The notes under the pieces: model-generated
Database searches by the model: none
What the model was told of the DNA's origin: nothing
What the model saw: only the letters and a program-made list of their open reading frames with translations
Part shown: positions 3,345-47,009 of the stretch, piece by piece
Layout: each line of letters begins with the position of its first letter
Numbering within the stretch: position 1 is the first letter of the stretch
Position numbers and translations under genes: made by a program
NCBI GenBank assembly: GCA_964557325.1
Contig: CAZKZO010000001.1
Coordinates: 1,159-65,158, forward strand
Length of the DNA stretch: 64,000 bases
Direction of reading: 5' to 3'
Origin: Candidatus Woesearchaeota archaeon
GTDB taxonomy: Archaea > Nanobdellota > Nanobdellia > Pacearchaeales > GW2011-AR1

Positions 3345-3416
3345 GCCTGTGTAGCTCAGTGGTAGAGTGGCTGCCTTGTAAGCAGTAGGTCGGGGGTTCA
3401 AATCCCTCCACAGGCT
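3345..3416 (+). tRNA. tRNA-Thr (anticodon TGT)
   Basis: Acceptor GCCTGTG/CACAGGC, D-arm TAGCTCAGTGGTAGAGT, anticodon loop CTTGTAA, T-arm GGGGGTTCAAATCCCTC. Confidence 0.8.
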
Positions 3417-5422: not shown

Positions 5423-6724
5423 TTACCTTGCAAACCCTACTTTCTTCAACAAATCCTTTCCTTGAATCCTGCCCAAACTACCTGTTTTTGCATTTTTTTC
5501 ACAAAATTTTTTAGGTTCTTGTGCTTTTTTTTCAGAAGATTTAGCTTTTCCAAACACATTTAAAATTTTCTTTGGCTTTGGAATAGATTGATTATAAAAC
5601 AATACAGGAACAGGGTCTGAAGAATGTTCTTTTAGTTTACAAGGTGTTGAATGATCAGCAGTTACAACTATTTTAATTTGTTTTGGAGGTGCAAATTTTC
5701 TCAAAAACTTAAACAATGTTTTATCAATATATTCAAGCATATGTTTTTTCTCAATAGGTTTATTATCATGTCCTGGTAAATCTGTTTCTTTTATATGTAT
5801 ATATGCATAATCATATTTTTTATGATTTTTCTTTAAAGACTTAATTGAAAAACTACAAGCTTTTTTCAATCCATGCCAAAGATTCCTATAAACATCAATT
5901 CCTTTTAATTTAGGATATTTAAATGAAAAATTCTTCATTCCACACACCTTTGAAAAACCTATTTCCAAAGGCATATAACTAACAGACATCCATTTTTTAT
6001 AGAATTTTAATTTAGGTGTTTCAATTCCAGGCCCTCTCATAAGTAAAAAATTAGCAGGCAATAAACCTTTTTTCTTCCTATATCCATTTATAGGATGTTT
6101 ATCTAAAATTTCAAAAACCTTGTCTGCAAATCCATTCAATATATTAACAGTATATTGTGTGTTATCCTCATCATCTAATTCTTTAAAATTACTTATTTTT
6201 TCAACTTCTTTTGCCTTTCCTTTAGAATAAGTTAAATCATTCCCAGTAATATTATCTGAAAATCCTCCTTTTAAAACTAAAACACCTCTATGCTGAACCG
6301 TAGACTTAAACTCAAAATCACAAGGTAATTTTATCTTATTAATTGCTTTAGCCAAAATCTCAGATTCTTCACTTGAAAGAGTTCTTCCTGCTCTTCTATC
6401 TATTATATTTCCATTTTTAAGATTATCTATTGTTGCAAAATTAACTCTTAATGCCAAATCTCCTCTAGTTAATTTTATATCTGTTCCTCTTACTTCTAAT
6501 TGACCTCTTGTACTAGAAGTTATTTTATTTCCAAAAAGAGAAACAATTGCTTCATCTGATTCAGGCACAAAACCAGGCTTTACAGAATCCATAATACCCA
6601 TTTCACCCCTTGTAGCAAGAAAATCAAGATTAGGCATTTCAGCATCTTCTAAAGGAGTTTTTCCTTTTAACTGCCGGTGAGGTAAGTCACCCATTCCATC
6701 AATAATCACAAGTATTCCTTTCAT
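5423..6724 (-). CDS. apgM: 2,3-bisphosphoglycerate-independent phosphoglycerate mutase, archaeal type
   Basis: N-terminal VIIDGMGD..., metalloenzyme-domain motifs (TADHSTP, DLPGH), length ~430 aa. Confidence 0.85.
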   Translation of the reverse strand: MKGILVIIDGMGDLPHRQLKGKTPLEDAEMPNLDFLATRGEMGIMDSVKPGFVPESDEAIVSLFGNKITSSTRGQLEVRGTDIKLTRGDLALRVNFATIDNLKNGNIIDRRAGRTLSSEESEILAKAINKIKLPCDFEFKSTVQHRGVLVLKGGFSDNITGNDLTYSKGKAKEVEKISNFKELDDEDNTQYTVNILNGFADKVFEILDKHPINGYRKKKGLLPANFLLMRGPGIETPKLKFYKKWMSVSYMPLEIGFSKVCGMKNFSFKYPKLKGIDVYRNLWHGLKKACSFSIKSLKKNHKKYDYAYIHIKETDLPGHDNKPIEKKHMLEYIDKTLFKFLRKFAPPKQIKIVVTADHSTPCKLKEHSSDPVPVLFYNQSIPKPKKILNVFGKAKSSEKKAQEPKKFCEKNAKTGSLGRIQGKDLLKKVGFAR

Positions 6725-6830
6725 TTTTAATTTCTTCTATTTAAATACATAAAAAATACGCATGAGTTCTTTATAAAAATTTATGTACATGATTAGTTAA
6801 TATTATAAATCATTTAACCCTTTTTTCAAT

Positions 6831-7943
6831 ATGTTTAAAAAATTCAAACAAAAATTAGGAAACTGGACTAAAAAAATCAGTAAAGTAGAAAAAAAGGAAA
6901 AATCTGAGAAAAAAACACAAACAACAAAACCTGTAAAAAACAAAGAAATTCCAACACCTATGAAATTTGAAGTTGGAACCCAATCTTACCAACCAGATAC
7001 AGAAAAAATAAAAGAAAAGCAAAAAGTCCTAAAGGAACAACCAAAGCCAGGTACAAAATCATTTTTAAAAAAAGTTACTTCAAAAATACAAAAGATTAAA
7101 ATAACTGAAAAAGAATTTGATATATATAGTGAAGAACTTGAAAATCTTCTTCTTGAAAACAATGTTGCACTTGAAGTAACTGAAAAAATAATTAAAGAAT
7201 TAAAAGAAAAAATAATAAGCAAGGAACTCTTGAAAAAAGAAATTGAATCTGAAATAAAAGATGCACTTAAAGAAATAATAAAAAATATCTTAATTGAACC
7301 TTTTGATATTGAAGAAAAAATAAAAGAAAAAAAAGAAGATCAAACAAAAGAACCTTTTGTAATTTTATTCTGTGGAGTAAACGGCACTGGTAAAACAACA
7401 ACAATTGCAAAAATAACCCATCATTTAAAGAAAAAAGGATTTTCTTGCTTATTAGCTGCAGGAGACACTTTCAGGGCTGCTAGCATAGAACAATTAAAAA
7501 AACACGGAGAAAGATTGAACACCAAAGTAATTGCTAATGAATATGGTTCTGACCCTGCTTCTGTTGGTTTTGATGCTATAAAACATGCAAAAAAGAATTT
7601 TATTGATGTAGTTTTAATAGATACTGCAGGAAGAATGCATACTTCAAAAAACCTTATGAGGGAAATAGAAAAAATAAACAAAGTCTGCAAACCTGATTTG
7701 AAATTATTTATAGGAGAAAGTATTGCAGGAAATGATTCTATAGAACAAATAAGAAGTTTTGACTGGGCTGTAAAAATAAATGGAATCATACTAACAAAAG
7801 CAGATGTAGATGAAAAAGGCGGAACTGCACTCTCTTTAGGATATGTCACAAAAAAACCAATCATCTTTTTAGGCACAGGACAGGAATATGATGAAATAGA
7901 AGTATTTAACAAAAACAAATTCTTAAAAGGGCTGGGTTTGTGA
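6831..7943 (+). CDS. ftsY: Signal recognition particle receptor FtsY
   Basis: NG domain motifs: GVNGTGKTTTIAKI, AAGDTFRAAS..QL, DTAGRMH, TKADVDEKGG. Confidence 0.85.
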   Translation: MFKKFKQKLGNWTKKISKVEKKEKSEKKTQTTKPVKNKEIPTPMKFEVGTQSYQPDTEKIKEKQKVLKEQPKPGTKSFLKKVTSKIQKIKITEKEFDIYSEELENLLLENNVALEVTEKIIKELKEKIISKELLKKEIESEIKDALKEIIKNILIEPFDIEEKIKEKKEDQTKEPFVILFCGVNGTGKTTTIAKITHHLKKKGFSCLLAAGDTFRAASIEQLKKHGERLNTKVIANEYGSDPASVGFDAIKHAKKNFIDVVLIDTAGRMHTSKNLMREIEKINKVCKPDLKLFIGESIAGNDSIEQIRSFDWAVKINGIILTKADVDEKGGTALSLGYVTKKPIIFLGTGQEYDEIEVFNKNKFLKGLGL

Positions 7944-11908: not shown

Positions 11909-11981
11909 AGCCCTGTAGTACAGTGGTCAAGTATGCAGCCCTTTGAAGGCTGAGACCCAGGTTCGAATCCTGGCAGGGCTA
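11909..11981 (+). tRNA. tRNA-Gln (anticodon TTG)
   Basis: Acceptor AGCCCTG/CAGGGCT, anticodon stem CAGCC/GGCTG with loop CTTTGAA, T-arm CCAGGTTCGAATCCTGG. Confidence 0.8.
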
Positions 11982-40491: not shown

Positions 40492-40770
40492 TTAAACAAG
40501 ATCTTCAGGCATTTCGTCTAAATCAGAATCCTGGCTTGGTAAGGCAGATTTGTTTATAATAAAAATATCACTAATTGCCCTTACAAATTGATGAGGTATA
40601 ATCACTCCTCTTGCCCCTCCTATCAAAGACATAACACTTCCGCCTACTTTTATTCTCCAGCTATCAATCTTATTTTCCTGAAGATTTGCCTCTTCAACTT
40701 CTCCAAAAAAATCACCTGAATCAGTATAAACTTTAGTACCCATAACGTCTGTAACTTCTTTTATCCTCAT
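40492..40770 (-). CDS. PRC-barrel domain protein
   Basis: About 90 aa; VMGTKVYTDSGDFFGEVEEANL....KIDSWRIKV is typical of the PRC barrel. Confidence 0.5.
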   Translation of the reverse strand: MRIKEVTDVMGTKVYTDSGDFFGEVEEANLQENKIDSWRIKVGGSVMSLIGGARGVIIPHQFVRAISDIFIINKSALPSQDSDLDEMPEDLV

Positions 40771-40897
40771 GATTAAGAATTATCAACCCTTATTTAAATA
40801 CTTTTCCATACTCTTAAACATTTATTCTATAACATATGAAATTTCTCTATAAATCAAAGACACAAAAATTTATAAAAAATTCAACACTCTATGAACT

Positions 40898-41524
40898 ATG
40901 CTTAATAAAAAAGAAACAGCATTAGTTCTGATAATTGCTTTTATATTTGCAATCTCATTAAGTTTTTTGAAAGGAATTGATGTCTTTCTAAGTTTTTTAA
41001 TTATATCTTTATTAGTGCTAATAATTAATATTTTTGCTAAAAAAATAGCAGGATTTTACCTTGATTCTGAAGTAGAAATAGATGTATGGAAAATGAAAAG
41101 ATATGGTTTCAAGCCAGGTTCTCATTTTAAAAGAGGATTACCTGCAGGAGCATTATTCCCCTTACTTTCATCTGTACTTACATTTGGCAATTTTGTATGG
41201 CTTGCCTCTCTGATTTTTGAAGTAAAGCCAAAAATCTACAGAGCTGCAAAAAGACACACTCTTTACAAATTCTCAGAAATGACAGAAGAACACATTGGCT
41301 TAATAGCTACTGCAGGAATCACAGCAAATATACTCTTTGCAATATTAGGTTATTTAATAGGATTTTCTGATTTTGCAAAACTAAATATTTATTTTGCAAC
41401 ATTTAATCTTATACCTTTATCTAATCTTGATGGAAACAAAATATTCTTTGGAAACATTGTTACATGGAGCACACTTTCAATAATTGCGCTCATAGGATTA
41501 GGAGCTTCATTATTTTTGGTATGA
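40898..41524 (+). CDS. M50/S2P-like membrane protein lacking HExxH
   Basis: C-terminal NLIPLSNLDGNK resembles the M50 LDG motif, but no HExxH is present. Confidence 0.3.
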   Translation: MLNKKETALVLIIAFIFAISLSFLKGIDVFLSFLIISLLVLIINIFAKKIAGFYLDSEVEIDVWKMKRYGFKPGSHFKRGLPAGALFPLLSSVLTFGNFVWLASLIFEVKPKIYRAAKRHTLYKFSEMTEEHIGLIATAGITANILFAILGYLIGFSDFAKLNIYFATFNLIPLSNLDGNKIFFGNIVTWSTLSIIALIGLGASLFLV

Positions 41525-41558
41525 AAAAACATTTAAACAAGACAATATAAGTAATAAT

Positions 41559-41765
41559 ATGGAGAAAAAAAGTTTTTTGAAGAAAAAGAAAATAACAGCA
41601 GTAATTTCAATATTTTCTTTAATAGCAGGATTTATGTTTTTAAATCAAGACATAACAGGAAATGTTATTTTAGAATCAAATCCCTCATTTAACCCTTTAA
41701 CACTAATAGGGCTTTTGCTTGTTTTCTGTTCAGCAATACTTGCATTATATTCTATAAAAAAGTAA
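41559..41765 (+). CDS. Small membrane protein
   Basis: Two TM helices. Confidence 0.3.
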   Translation: MEKKSFLKKKKITAVISIFSLIAGFMFLNQDITGNVILESNPSFNPLTLIGLLLVFCSAILALYSIKK

Positions 41766-41771
41766 ACACGC

Positions 41772-44700
41772 ATGGAATTTCTAGAGAAAATTACTCCAAG
41801 AGAGTATCAATATAAAATTTTTCAAACATGTAAGGAAAAGAATTGTTTAGTTGTGCTTCCGACAGGATTAGGAAAAACACTTATTGCGCTAATGCTTACA
41901 ATCAACAGACTTAAAAAATATCCTGAAGAAAAAATTCTCTTTCTTGCCCCAACCAAACCACTAACAGAACAACATTATTCTTATTTCAAAAAATATCTTC
42001 CAGAATTATTTGCAGGAACAGAAATATTTACAGGAACAGTGCCTGCAAAACAAAGAAAAAAACTTTGGCAAAAAGCAGATATTATTTTCTCAACACCTCA
42101 ATGCATTTCAAACGACTTAAAAAACAAACTGTATGATTTAAAAGAAGTTTCTCTATTAATAGAAGATGAAGCCCACAGGTGTATTAAAAATTACGCATAT
42201 AATTATGTTGCCCAACAATATAAACACCAGGCAAAAAACCAAAGAATAATAGGTTTGACAGCTTCTCCAGGAAATGATTATGCCAAAATAAATAACATTT
42301 GCAAAAACCTTTCTATTGAGGCTGTAGAGCTTAAAACCCGTAAAAGCCCTGATGTTAAAAAATATCTGCAAGAACTTGAATTTGAAAAAATAAATGTAAA
42401 ACTTCCTTCTGAATTTACAGAAATCCAGGTCACACTAAAAGAACTTTTCAATAAATATATTTCAGAACTTAAAAAAAGAAAACTTTTATGGGCACCCCCC
42501 AGCAAAACAGAACTTATAAAACTTCAGAAAAAACTTGCAAAAAACATTTCTATGGGAGGTAAAAACTATAATACCCTTTTAGGAATGAGTGCTTGTGCAC
42601 AGGCAATAAAAATACAACACGCATTAGAACTTTTAGAAACCCAAACCTTAACCAGTTTTAATAAATACATAAAAAACTTGTTTAAAAGAGCTGCAAAAAA
42701 AGAAAGTAAAGGAATTATAAGACTTGTTTCAAAACCAGAATTTAACTTTGTTTATATGAAATCTAATGAACTTCTTGAAAAAAATAAAGAACACCCTAAA
42801 CTTAAAGAATTGGTTTCTTTGATAGAAAAAGAAAAATCAAAAAATTCTGAGCCAAAAATAATTATATTTGCACAATACAGGGAAACTATTCAACTAATTT
42901 CTAAAAAAATAAATGAACTACCTGGATTAAAGGCAAAAGTTTTTGTAGGGCAAACAAAAAAATCAACTTCTTCAGGAGTAAGTGGCTTAAGCCAGGATGA
43001 ACAGAAAAAAATAATAAAAGAGTTTGCAGAAAAAAAGATAAATGTTCTTTGTTCAACATCCGTACATCCTAAAGAATACATAATCATAAAAAAAGGAGAT
43101 AAAATAGATTTAAGAAAAATTGGAATGTTTGTTGATTCTTTTTTAGAAAAAAATGAATTTTCAAAAAGAATATGTGGCTATGAAACATTGACTACTGACG
43201 GTAAAAAAATATATTTCGCACCAATAACCCATATTCACAAACATCTCTCAAAATTAAATTGTTCACAAGTAAGGCTTAGTTCAGGTCTCGACACTTTAAT
43301 AACTGAAGACCATAGTCTATTTAGTTTTGACAAAAAGAATAAATTTACTCCAAGTATCCCTAAATTAAACAAATTTGTAGCACTTTCTCTAAATTGCCCA
43401 AATATTGAAAATAAAGCAGAGATTGATATTTTTAAAGAAATTAAAAATAAAAACATTTCAAATTTATTTGGGTCTATTGAAGGATTAAATCAAGCAAAGA
43501 TGAGAAAATTGGAAACTGATCTAAAAATATTAAAAACAATTAAACAAAAAAAGAAGAGTATTACAGAAATAAAAAAATCATCAAAAAAAGCCTATTCAAC
43601 TGTGATAAATTGTGGGAACAGACTAAAAGAAAAAAGTTATTTAATAAAACGAAAAGAAAAGAAAAATTTCAAAACAAGTTTTTTAATAACTAAAAGAGGC
43701 ACTGAATATTTAGCTTTTTTAGAATGGTTTTTTAAAAATGTTTATTATAGAAAGGGGAAGTATAGATTTAAATTAAAAAAAATACCCAAAAAAGATTTTT
43801 CTAAATTTTTTAAATCACACTTAAATGTAAATTACGGAAAAGTAAGATCTCCACGAAAAATAACAGTCAATAAAGAGGTTGCAAAATTTTTAGGTTTCTA
43901 TGTTTCAGAAGGGCACGCGAGAAAAACGGAAAAAAAATCAGAGATTTTTCTAGCAGCAAGAAAGAAGAAAATGCAGGATCTGATGGAAAAATCAATTAGG
44001 GAAGGTTTAAAATTAAAAACAAGAAGAAGTAAAAATGGAGTTGCAATTGACGCTCAAATAGGTTATTATCTTATTAAAGATGTATTCAGAGCAGGGATAG
44101 GTTCTTACAATAAAGAAGTTCCAGAGATAATTTTTACTTCTCCGTCAAAAGTTAAATGGGCTTTTTTAGAGACCTATTTTCTTGGTGATGGATACTTTTC
44201 AAAAGACAAGATAGTTTTAACAACAGTAAGTAGAAAACTTATAACCGGAATTGTTCTATTGCTTAGGATGTTAGGAATACAACAAATAACGTTACATAAA
44301 CAAAAAAACATTTACAAACTGAATATATTTGAATCTCTTCCTTTTGCTAAAATCAAGAGAAAAAAAGAAAAAAGAAGGCGTTCATATTTCTCTCTCATTC
44401 CTAAAGCCCTAAAATCAAAAAGAATATTTGAAATTTACGAAAGCTACTTTAACTATAATAAAAATATTTCAAAAAAATGCAGGGAAATAGGAAAATGGGA
44501 TAATGATATTTGTTATGATTTTATAAAAAAAATAAAGAAATTAAAAAAACAACCTAAATTTGTTTATGATATATCTGTTAAAAAAACACAAAATTTTCTT
44601 GGAGGGACAGGATTATTTGTTCTCCACAATTCAATCGGTGAAGAAGGACTAGATATACCTGAAGTCAACACAGTAATATTTTATGAACCAATCCCTTCAG

Positions 44701-44897
44701 CTATAAGAGCAATTCAAAGAGCAGGAAGAACTGCAAGATTAAAAAAAGGAAAACTTGTAATATTAATAACAGAAAAAACAAGAGATGAAATTAATTTTTA
44801 TGTTTCTCGTGCAAAAGAGAAAAAAATGAAATCTGCAATAAAAAATATAAAGAAAAACCTTGGAAGTAAAAAAGATTTTCAAAAAAAATTAAAATGA
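41772..44897 (+). CDS. hef: Hef/FANCM-type SF2 helicase (helicase module only) interrupted by an intein
   Basis: Motifs I (LPTGLGKT), II (DEAHRC), III (GLTASPG) and V/VI (CSTS | intein | SIGEEGLDIPEV...IQRAGRTAR). Confidence 0.75.
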   Translation: MEFLEKITPREYQYKIFQTCKEKNCLVVLPTGLGKTLIALMLTINRLKKYPEEKILFLAPTKPLTEQHYSYFKKYLPELFAGTEIFTGTVPAKQRKKLWQKADIIFSTPQCISNDLKNKLYDLKEVSLLIEDEAHRCIKNYAYNYVAQQYKHQAKNQRIIGLTASPGNDYAKINNICKNLSIEAVELKTRKSPDVKKYLQELEFEKINVKLPSEFTEIQVTLKELFNKYISELKKRKLLWAPPSKTELIKLQKKLAKNISMGGKNYNTLLGMSACAQAIKIQHALELLETQTLTSFNKYIKNLFKRAAKKESKGIIRLVSKPEFNFVYMKSNELLEKNKEHPKLKELVSLIEKEKSKNSEPKIIIFAQYRETIQLISKKINELPGLKAKVFVGQTKKSTSSGVSGLSQDEQKKIIKEFAEKKINVLCSTSVHPKEYIIIKKGDKIDLRKIGMFVDSFLEKNEFSKRICGYETLTTDGKKIYFAPITHIHKHLSKLNCSQVRLSSGLDTLITEDHSLFSFDKKNKFTPSIPKLNKFVALSLNCPNIENKAEIDIFKEIKNKNISNLFGSIEGLNQAKMRKLETDLKILKTIKQKKKSITEIKKSSKKAYSTVINCGNRLKEKSYLIKRKEKKNFKTSFLITKRGTEYLAFLEWFFKNVYYRKGKYRFKLKKIPKKDFSKFFKSHLNVNYGKVRSPRKITVNKEVAKFLGFYVSEGHARKTEKKSEIFLAARKKKMQDLMEKSIREGLKLKTRRSKNGVAIDAQIGYYLIKDVFRAGIGSYNKEVPEIIFTSPSKVKWAFLETYFLGDGYFSKDKIVLTTVSRKLITGIVLLLRMLGIQQITLHKQKNIYKLNIFESLPFAKIKRKKEKRRRSYFSLIPKALKSKRIFEIYESYFNYNKNISKKCREIGKWDNDICYDFIKKIKKLKKQPKFVYDISVKKTQNFLGGTGLFVLHNSIGEEGLDIPEVNTVIFYEPIPSAIRAIQRAGRTARLKKGKLVILITEKTRDEINFYVSRAKEKKMKSAIKNIKKNLGSKKDFQKKLK
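43059..44630 (+). mobile_element. Hef helicase intein (524 aa) with a LAGLIDADG endonuclease domain
   Basis: Inserted in motif V (TS | VGEEGLD equivalent). Begins with Ser and ends ...VLHN with a +1 Ser. LAGLIDADG-like blocks LGFYVSEGHA and ETYFLGDGYF. Confidence 0.65.
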
Positions 44898-45613
44898 CTC
44901 CTTTTTTAGATATATTTTCCAAAACAAATAAAAAGAAATTACCTAAAAAAGAAAAAATTATAATTGATTATCAAGAAAGGAATTCCCTTGTAAGTGGAGA
45001 GCTTGAAAAGTTAGGATTAAAAACAGAATTTACAAGACTTAAAGTTGCAGATTACATGGTAAAAGGCATAGCTATTGAAAGGAAAACTGTTTCAGATTTT
45101 ATAAGTTCAATGATAAATAAAAGACTTATAAAACAACTTAAGGAACTTCAACAATATGAAAACAGACTTTTATTAATAGAAGGTATTGAAGAACAGGAAC
45201 TTTATTCAGAAGAATTTGCAAAAACAAAAACAGGAATCCATCCAAATGCAATAAGAGGTTTTCTTCTTTCAATATTATTAAATTATAAAACACCTATACT
45301 TTTTACAAAAGATTTTGCAGACACTGCCAGATTCATAAAAATCCTTTCAAAAAAACAAAAAAAAGAACTTCCCCTAAATATAAATAAAAAAACACTCAAC
45401 ACTCAAGAAAGAATTCAATTTATACTTGAAGGTTTTCCAGGAATAGGCCCTAAAACTGCAAGAAAACTCTTAAATGAATTCAAAACCCTACAAAATATAA
45501 TTAATGCTTCAGAAGAAGAATTAAAAGAAGTTGTTGGAAAAAAATCAGAGCCTCTAATAAAAATAATTAACTATAAATATAAAGAAAAACCAAGAAATCC
45601 AGAGAAAAAATAA
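44894..45613 (+). CDS. ERCC4/XPF-family nuclease domain with HhH2 (Hef nuclease module as a separate ORF)
   Basis: ERCC4 core (IDYQERNS...VADYMV...ERKTVSDF) and a C-terminal (HhH)2 GFPGIGPKTARKLL. Start overlaps the helicase stop (ATGA) just after an A8 run. Confidence 0.7.
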   Translation: MTPFLDIFSKTNKKKLPKKEKIIIDYQERNSLVSGELEKLGLKTEFTRLKVADYMVKGIAIERKTVSDFISSMINKRLIKQLKELQQYENRLLLIEGIEEQELYSEEFAKTKTGIHPNAIRGFLLSILLNYKTPILFTKDFADTARFIKILSKKQKKELPLNINKKTLNTQERIQFILEGFPGIGPKTARKLLNEFKTLQNIINASEEELKEVVGKKSEPLIKIINYKYKEKPRNPEKK

Positions 45614-45619
45614 AATTAA

Positions 45620-46195
45620 TTAAATTAATTTATATCTTTCAATAGCCCCATAAACAGGACCTTTTGGAAAAAGTTTTGACTTTTTAAGTTTAAATTCTTT
45701 AACTTTAAATTTAAGTTTAGGAAGTTTTATTTTCTTAAGCTCTCCAATAAACTTATTTTTATCATTTATCTTCTTTACCCTTGCAATAGTCAAATGACTC
45801 ATAAACCTTGTCTCTCTTGAAAAAATACCTTCAAGTTTCTCATCAACAGCTTTTTGAAGTTCGCCACAATTGCTTATATGTAACCAAACAATTATTTTTC
45901 TGTTAAAATGTCTTGATTTTGTATTGTCAAAAATACCTATTTTAGTTATTTCTGTTTCAAATTCTTTAAACATAATTTCTTTTAGTCTTCTTTTAACTTC
46001 AATTAAAATTTCTTTATCTATTTCTCCTAAAAACTTTAAAGTTAAATGTATGTTTTCTTGCTCAATAAATTTTCCTTTGAAAGCAGGAAGTTTTCTTTGT
46101 ATCTTTTTGATTTCAGAATGCAATTTTTTAGGCAAGTCTATTGAAACAAAAGCTCTTATTTTTTCATCTTTCTTTTTTTTTGTTTTCTTTATCAT
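45620..46195 (-). CDS. thpR: RNA 2',3'-cyclic phosphodiesterase (ThpR/LigT, 2H family)
   Basis: Two H-x-T/S-x motifs (HLTLKFLG and HLTIARV). Confidence 0.65.
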   Translation of the reverse strand: MIKKTKKKKDEKIRAFVSIDLPKKLHSEIKKIQRKLPAFKGKFIEQENIHLTLKFLGEIDKEILIEVKRRLKEIMFKEFETEITKIGIFDNTKSRHFNRKIIVWLHISNCGELQKAVDEKLEGIFSRETRFMSHLTIARVKKINDKNKFIGELKKIKLPKLKFKVKEFKLKKSKLFPKGPVYGAIERYKLI

Positions 46196-46205
46196 TTTAA
46201 ATTAA

Positions 46206-47009
46206 TCAAATTAATTCAGCAAGTATTTTAGCTGCTAACTTAATGCTTAATTCAGGATTTTGTTTTTCAGGATTAAGTTCAACAATATCTATAGCTTTTA
46301 AAGTTTTGACTTTGTTCAATCTCTGCAAAAGATAAATTAACTGTCTGCTTGTCAATCCTCCTGGCTCTGGAAAAGCCACAGAAGGCATAAAACTTGGATC
46401 AAGCACACACAAATCAAGTGAAACATAAAGCTCTTTTCCATTTGCAAACTCCATGATTCCATCACAAGCATCTTCTAAATCAGAAATAATTGTGTTGATT
46501 GAAACTTTTTTTATTTTTTTCTCTTTTAAAAAATTAGATTCTTCTAAACTCAAACTCCTAGTACCAACCAAAAGAATATTTTCACCTGGAAAACCAGATT
46601 CAACTAATTCCCTTAGCCATGACAAATTATCTGCAAAACCTGTTTTTGATTTACGACAATTAGCATATGCATCAAAAACAATTAAACAAGGTTCTTTTTC
46701 TTCTTGTTTGCAATACTCTAAAAAAGCTCTTGTTAAAGAAAAACTAACACTTCCATCACCACCTAAAAAGATACTCTTGGACTTAATTTCAAAAATTTCA
46801 TAAGCATTTTCATAAATTAACTTATTTGTTAATTCAAGATTAGAATTATCTAAATGAATTTCTTCTAAATCCAAAGAATCTACACTAATTAACTTTCCAG
46901 ATTCATTACCTTGGATCTTTCTCAACTCAGAAATTATTTTATTTCCAGATTTTTCACAGCCTTTTGTCTTTCCAAATCCATTAATGCCTGGAACTTTTAC
47001 TATAAACAT
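46206..47009 (-). CDS. Arginase/agmatinase-fold protein with substituted metal-binding motifs
   Basis: Motif equivalents are GGDGS (for GGDHS), DAYAN (for DAHxD) and SLDLCVLDP (for SxDxDxxDP). Confidence 0.5.
   Translation of the reverse strand: MFIVKVPGINGFGKTKGCEKSGNKIISELRKIQGNESGKLISVDSLDLEEIHLDNSNLELTNKLIYENAYEIFEIKSKSIFLGGDGSVSFSLTRAFLEYCKQEEKEPCLIVFDAYANCRKSKTGFADNLSWLRELVESGFPGENILLVGTRSLSLEESNFLKEKKIKKVSINTIISDLEDACDGIMEFANGKELYVSLDLCVLDPSFMPSVAFPEPGGLTSRQLIYLLQRLNKVKTLKAIDIVELNPEKQNPELSIKLAAKILAELI

Follow-up and report, generated by a model that had tools for sequence, protein, structure and literature searches.

In Pyrococcus furiosus, Hef (1WP9; 1J22-1J25; 1X2I) is a single, intein-free polypeptide in which a superfamily 2 (SF2) helicase with a thumb-like helical insert is followed by an ERCC4 nuclease and an HhH2 domain, with a motif resembling the PCNA-interacting protein (PIP) box between the helicase and nuclease parts. 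Shorter proteins with one or the other part have also been described. Aeropyrum pernix XPF (2BGW/2BHN) is a stand-alone ERCC4 + HhH2 protein of ~220-240 amino acids (aa), and Thermoplasma acidophilum Hef is a helicase described as being without a nuclease domain (PMC4838364). Here we describe a Hef locus in a 64-kilobase (kb) stretch of contig CAZKZO010000001.1 from Candidatus Woesearchaeota archaeon (28.7% GC; the whole stretch is called the window below), in which the domains of P. furiosus Hef are present in the same order but are encoded by two genes, with an intein in the helicase. The locus is one of many two-gene, sometimes intein-bearing Hef loci in DPANN archaea, and both features are common among its relatives. 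We consider it very probable that this two-subunit Hef goes back to an old splitting of the gene in a Pacearchaeota-like DPANN clade, rather than being a single-chain Hef made by frameshifting.

The helicase gene lies on the + strand at 41772..44897 (stop included) and encodes a 1041-aa precursor, to whose residue numbers the positions of the intein, domains and motifs refer; the stand-alone ERCC4-HhH2 nuclease gene follows at 44894..45613 on the + strand and encodes 239 aa. An earlier note on this stretch, made from the letters alone, had described Hef as split into a helicase and a nuclease open reading frame (ORF), and the ORF list, Pfam and PDB matches bear this out for both genes. In the helicase ORF, Pfam identified DEAD, ResIII, RNA_helicase_helical (the Hef-type helical insert), Helicase_C, Intein_splicing and LAGLIDADG_3 domains, and in a PDB search the P. 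furiosus Hef helicase 1WP9 aligned to residues 6-431 and 953-1020 (E = 1e-106). The helicase motifs are intact: motif I is PTGLGKT (aa 30-36), motif II DEAH (132-135), motif III TASP (163-166) and motif VI QRAGRTAR (982-989), and motif V is present once the intein is taken out. For the nuclease, we found ERCC4 (PF02732, E = 6.5e-26) at aa 24-150 together with HHH_5 and HHH_2 matches, the HhH2 domain spanning ~aa 170-226, and the best solved relatives in the PDB search were A. pernix XPF and the P. furiosus Hef nuclease. The ERCC4 signature residues D53, E62-R63-K64 and D68 fit the family pattern (G)DXn-ERKX3D and are invariant in 26 orthologs. An alignment of 26 sequences has 52 invariant columns, and as judged from this alignment the nuclease shows strong purifying selection. 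In the AlphaFold model of the nuclease, the ERCC4 core has a predicted local distance difference test score (pLDDT) >90 and the HhH2 domain is confident, whereas residues 1-18 form a disordered tail (pLDDT <50) with a short helix predicted at residues 4-9. Both parts expected of a Hef in the XPF-MUS81-FANCM family, an SF2 helicase with the Hef-type helical insertion and an ERCC4 plus HhH2 module, are thus encoded at this locus; the canonical euryarchaeal long form, in which they make up one polypeptide, is found neither here nor in 73 relatives.

The two genes meet in an ATGA overlap at 44894..44897 on the + strand, in which the nuclease start (44894-96) overlaps the helicase stop (44895-97). 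The helicase ORF ends in CAAAAAAAATTAAAATGA, and the nuclease ORF opens in the -1 frame at the ATG inside these terminal letters, as the earlier note had seen. In codons, the helicase 3' end reads GAT TTT CAA AAA AAA TTA AAA TGA; the codons of the conserved C-terminal tail Q-K-K-L-K (CAA AAA AAA TTA AAA) occupy 44880..44894 of the + strand and contain an A8 run at 44881..44888 (+ strand). The zero-frame A_AAA_AAA heptamer within this run is at 44882-44888, at the coordinates given before. Upstream, the nuclease frame is closed by a TAA at 44867-69, which leaves 8 sense codons before the ATG, one fewer than the 9 that had been counted. An ATGA overlap of this kind is the usual geometry for translational coupling.

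Scanning the relatives, with one genome per species, gave 80 loci. A separate helicase ORF of ~517-556 aa lies upstream of the nuclease gene and on the same strand in 73 of the 80, and none of these 73 is fused; the other seven have no visible helicase C-terminus, the upstream sequence being too short in most. The 73 junctions comprise 24 overlaps (-44 to -1 nucleotides (nt)), 21 spacers of 0-60 nt, 11 of 61-1000 nt and 17 of >1 kb, the longest of which exceed 3 kb. Among the 45 adjacent pairs, the nuclease frame relative to the helicase is -1 in 22, +1 in 16 and 0 in 7. Among the closest intein-bearing relatives, two share the ATGA overlap with the window and lack the slippery heptamer: in L084 the helicase tail is encoded by cag aaa aaa tta aaa TGA (QKKLK-stop), and in L085 by caa aaa aga cta TGA (QKRL-stop). 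Across the orthologs, the helicase tail has the consensus [DE]-[FV]-Q-[KE]-[KT]-L-x-stop. The 120 top-ranking nuclease homologs (60-73% identity) are without exception stand-alone proteins of 225-255 aa, mostly from metagenome-assembled genomes (MAGs) of Pacearchaeota or Woesearchaeota, and they share a conserved N-terminus, M-x-x-[IF]-[FL]-[DN]-I-F-S-K.

The surroundings of the two genes are conserved as well. Both the window (at 40492-47009) and loci L083-L085 keep the order PRC-barrel (-), M50-like membrane protein (+), helicase, nuclease, LigT-like 2'-5' RNA ligase/phosphoesterase (-) and arginase-family protein (-). L083, which of the intein-bearing relatives is the closest (63% identity), has its helicase and nuclease genes separated by a VapB/VapC (PIN) toxin-antitoxin pair and a further small ORF (6337-7182 of that locus). 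Some Pacearchaeota-like split-Hef loci or proteins carry bacterial labels, namely L065 (Omnitrophota bacterium), P0028 (Bacillota bacterium) and P0224 ("bacterium"); these records are probably mis-binned or mislabelled MAG contigs.

Fused Hefs of ~730-765 aa also occur, in Woesearchaeota and other DPANN, and were found at 43-48% identity in a search with the whole precursor. In a neighbour-joining tree of the helicase exteins, 66 split and 44 fused sequences formed a clean bipartition, in keeping with a single fission. On the simplest account, Hef was split once, in the ancestor of the clade, after which the junction drifted and other genes were occasionally inserted. When the nuclease was searched against representatives, stand-alone forms dominated the nearest clusters and fused forms appeared from 49% identity down, and the closest representative clusters are an interleaved set of fused Hefs and stand-alone nucleases. 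This interleaving fits a nuclease derived from a fused Hef, not from crenarchaeal XPF. We considered the acquisition of the nuclease from a crenarchaeal-type XPF, A. pernix XPF being the best full-length solved match to it (E = 3e-19), and do not favour it: the nucleases of fused Hefs are equally close (up to 49% identity), the nuclease gene usually lies directly downstream of the helicase gene, and split and fused helicases separate cleanly in the tree. Crenarchaeal XPF carries its PCNA motif at the C-terminus, whereas the conserved tail motif of the window nuclease is N-terminal, and we know of no partner Hef helicase for crenarchaeal XPF.

The second feature of the locus is a 524-aa LAGLIDADG intein at residues 430-953 of the precursor (43059..44630, + strand). 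Pfam (Intein_splicing, E = 7e-12), PDB and an alignment of 21 alleles from the same site all agree with the earlier note, which had recognized a Ser-initiated intein of this length and class interrupting motif V. With the splice junctions marked by ^, the boundaries read VLCST^SVHPKEY ... LFVLHN^SIGEEGLD. The splicing blocks comprise Ser1 (S430), block B TEDH (511-514), block F FVYDISV and block G H952-N953, followed by S954 as the +1 residue, and the two LAGLIDADG motifs are AKFLGFYVSEG (704-714, acidic E713) and FLETYFLGDGY (798-808, acidic D806). Among the 21 aligned alleles, the splicing and endonuclease blocks and both LAGLIDADG acidic residues are >=90% conserved. When the intein is excised, VLCST and SIGEEGLD rejoin to give the Hef motif V, VLVATSVGEEGLD; the 1WP9 alignment is contiguous over the excised junction (residue 428 to 426), and the spliced sequence is matched by 66 intein-free orthologous helicases that can be aligned end to end. 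From the intact splicing blocks we infer that the intein self-splices after translation and so restores motif V.

Alignment to known inteins, which had been proposed as a check, identified PI-PkoII (PDB 2CW7) as the closest solved structure (residues 692-953, E = 4e-33). A query with the intein protein only returned five matches and was dominated by Lys-rich low-complexity words, the nearest non-Hef intein among them being 30% identical and located in a Methanocaldococcus UDP-glucose dehydrogenase; the full precursor was a far more productive query. At the same position, at least 20 other clusters carry inteins that are 43-60% identical, with the pattern [AS][ST]^S[VLI]HP[DE]E ... LHN^[SC][IV][GA]EEG, and some of their hosts are helicase-only proteins, others fused Hefs of ~1270 aa; Micrarchaeota sequences are also among them. 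The motif V intein is absent from all 80 species-representative loci, which indicates a sporadic distribution, as expected of a homing element. The precursor search further showed that inteins occupy at least five positions in the Hef helicases of DPANN, each of them within a conserved motif (P0142-P0198). Given by the equivalent residues of the window helicase, these are motif I (GK^T, aa 35/36), a site after TPQ (TPQ^C, aa 111/112), motif II (DE^CH, aa 133/134), motif V (aa 429/430, the site occupied here) and motif VI (QR^[CS]GRT, ~aa 983/984). Two-intein alleles were also present (P0142, P0144, P0149 and P0189), and several such alleles are ~1490-1563 aa long. PI-PkoII and the multi-site inteins of haloarchaeal MCM (PMC10643990) belong to the same class of element, LAGLIDADG inteins lodged in a catalytic motif, and like MCM the Hef host gene offers several alternative insertion sites; unlike in those known cases of inteins in ATPase motifs, the host protein here is Hef. 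Some of these proteins carry the JGI label "ERCC4-related helicase/intein/homing endonuclease". Neither the main text nor the top-15 tables of a 2015 intein survey mention Hef, and literature searches for a Hef intein or a split Hef in DPANN returned nothing specific.

Not all genes with an intein at this site are whole. L081 is called as two proteins of 550 aa and 319 aa, the break (within 1-2667 of that locus) falling inside the intein, and P0124 is truncated ~90 residues into the intein. These broken genes may be decaying inteins or assembly errors.

The A_AAA_AAA heptamer at the junction raises the possibility of programmed -1 ribosomal frameshifting, or of transcriptional slippage, at the A8 run, by which a regulated fraction of Hef would be made as a single chain in the manner of dnaX or insertion sequence (IS) elements. 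The earlier note had offered a -1 frameshift here as a possibility only. As in E. coli dnaX, where A_AAA_AAG is followed by a stem-loop, the window has an A-rich, zero-frame X_XXY_YYZ heptamer, placed two codons ahead of the helicase stop; from 44870 on, no stop interrupts the -1 frame up to and into the nuclease ORF, and the linker of the resulting fusion would be about as long as the linkers found in natural fused DPANN Hefs. Unlike dnaX, the window shows no downstream structure and no conservation of the heptamer, and many further copies of this heptamer lie elsewhere in the gene. The note had advised looking downstream for a stem-loop or pseudoknot. Pseudoknot-free folding of 44889-44990 (102 nt) gave a minimum free energy of -10 kcal/mol and nothing above shuffles (z = -0.86, with 34 of 200 shuffled sequences as good). 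The note had also named orthologs with two ORFs and no homopolymer as the outcome that would speak for a stable split, and this is the arrangement in close relatives. Of the 22 relatives with the nuclease in the -1 frame, just 2 have any X_XXY_YYZ from which the frames could be fused, A_AAA_AAA is confined to the window among the loci with an ATGA overlap, 23 of the 45 adjacent pairs are +1 or in frame, and in 28 relatives a spacer of >60 nt or whole genes separate the ORFs. Within the window, the + strand has 123 runs of A7 or longer, 25 of them inside the helicase ORF, and in-frame A_AAA_AAA occurs 78 times in ORFs of >=150 aa (4.5 per 1000 codons). The helicase ORF has 14 of these heptamers, so that the slippery heptamer is not enriched at the junction over background; at the other 13, slipping would truncate the protein. 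By our own rough estimate, the chance of meeting a heptamer within the 8-codon stretch that permits fusion is ~10% at the helicase's own density. The A8 run is just how a 29% GC genome spells Gln-Lys-Lys in the conserved helicase tail, the heptamer arising from these codons in an AT-rich genome with no dedicated role. We therefore regard programmed frameshifting as very unlikely. Two points nevertheless weigh against a purely two-subunit Hef: ribosomes may now and then slip into the -1 frame at A_AAA_AAA by chance, which would give a fusion whose linker has a natural length, and no Shine-Dalgarno-like sequence was seen upstream of the nuclease ATG, so that coupled initiation of the nuclease is suggested by the ATGA geometry alone. 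That slippage at the A8 run makes a small amount of fused Hef in this one organism also seems to us very improbable.

The same A8 run could be suspected of an assembly or sequencing error, as homopolymers are prone to indels and one added A, making the true run A9, would join the two frames into one fused ORF. The two-ORF layout, however, recurs in 73 independent genomes with differing junction sequences, and the identical two proteins are on record from both NCBI and Logan assemblies. The helicase tail QKKLK-stop equals that of the L084 ortholog, where it is encoded without an A8 run, and the nuclease start MTPFLDIFSK resembles MTPLLDIFSR and MTPLLDTFSK of orthologs; because both ends of the junction match orthologs encoded by different DNA, an indel is extremely unlikely. 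A decaying locus, in which the split is recent and either the nuclease or the helicase with its intein has lost its function, would be in keeping with the reduced genomes of DPANN and with the broken L081 and P0124 genes. Against it, both ORFs in the window are full length with every catalytic and splicing motif intact, the clade keeps both the arrangement and the order of the genes around it, and the invariant columns of the nuclease alignment speak for strong purifying selection, and we consider decay highly unlikely. The earlier description of the ORF layout and of the intein is right, and the frameshift is unsupported; an old fission into two separately translated genes remains the reading that we prefer.

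The position of the split is of interest in relation to the PIP box. The PIP box of Hef (Q-x-x-h-x-x-a) was shown to lie where the helicase part ends, in the linker that leads to the nuclease, and T. acidophilum Hef, which is helicase-only, uses this box at its very C-terminus to bind PCNA (Rohleder et al. 2016, PMC4838364). T. acidophilum Hef resembles the window helicase in being a nuclease-free Hef helicase that ends at the PIP-box position; it differs in ending in a complete, PCNA-binding Q-x-x-I-x-x-F, whereas the window helicase stops after Q-K-K-L-K and has its cognate ERCC4 nuclease gene adjoining. Of the 44 fused DPANN Hefs, 36 carry x-x-x-[LIMV]-x-x-[FYW]-h immediately ahead of the nuclease domain. 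In the split clade, Q-x-x-[LIMVF] occurs within the last 7 residues in 61 of 74 helicases, and three of the 74 have a complete terminal PIP box (QKKIGSFF-stop, QSEIGRFF-stop and QESMGKWF-stop in L033, L045 and L047). The window tail, QKKLK-stop, corresponds to the first half (Q-x-x-h-x) of the Hef PIP-box position. On the other side of the junction, the N-terminal nuclease motif FLDIFSK (44903..44923, + strand; consensus h-[FL]-[DN]-I-F-S-K) is a candidate for the second half of a PIP-like motif, and the spacing of h-[FL]-[DN]-I-F to the nuclease domain equals that of the second half of the fused PIP box. The fission seems to have occurred at or inside the PIP box. More tentatively, the cut may have left a terminal Q-x-x-L on the helicase and h-x-x-I-F in the disordered tail of the nuclease, so that the subunits would be reunited on the PCNA ring or by complementary tails rather than by a covalent linker; this remains a rather doubtful proposal. 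We also looked for a complete PIP box formed by recoding and rejected it on reading the sequences. The -1 frameshift product reads QKKIKMTPFLDIF, and when the TGA is read through, neither the window nor its relatives show a consistent Q-x-x-h-x-x-a-a motif.

Taken at this reading, the helicase would be made as a 1041-aa precursor whose intein must excise itself from motif V for activity, leaving a 517-aa SF2 helicase as the predicted active product. Ribosomes ending at the helicase TGA would probably restart at the nuclease's own ATG by termination-reinitiation, as the ATGA geometry suggests, and the nuclease would be expected to dimerise as the usual ERCC4/HhH2 homodimer of the XPF family. 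The two subunits may then act jointly at stalled forks, as fused Hef does.

Two further observations concern the surroundings of the locus. A 68-aa membrane ORF is predicted directly 5' of the helicase gene, at 41559-41765. An Rfam scan of the window at the gathering threshold found three tRNAs only (1314-1384, 3345-3416 and 11909-11981), all away from Hef.

The comparative results are of modest value and the frameshift candidate of little. The latter does illustrate that in very AT-rich genomes a textbook slippery heptamer beside an ATGA overlap says next to nothing. As a host of inteins at multiple sites, the Hef helicase of DPANN extends the list of intein hotspots to a repair helicase. In a whole DPANN clade, Hef is encoded as two separate subunits, a naturally split enzyme of the FANCM/XPF family. 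The coincidence of the fission point with the published PIP box suggests a way in which both parts could be brought together again on PCNA, and if this is true, the split PIP box would offer a natural experiment for asking how stalled forks are served by co-ordinated helicase and nuclease activities of the Hef/FANCM type.

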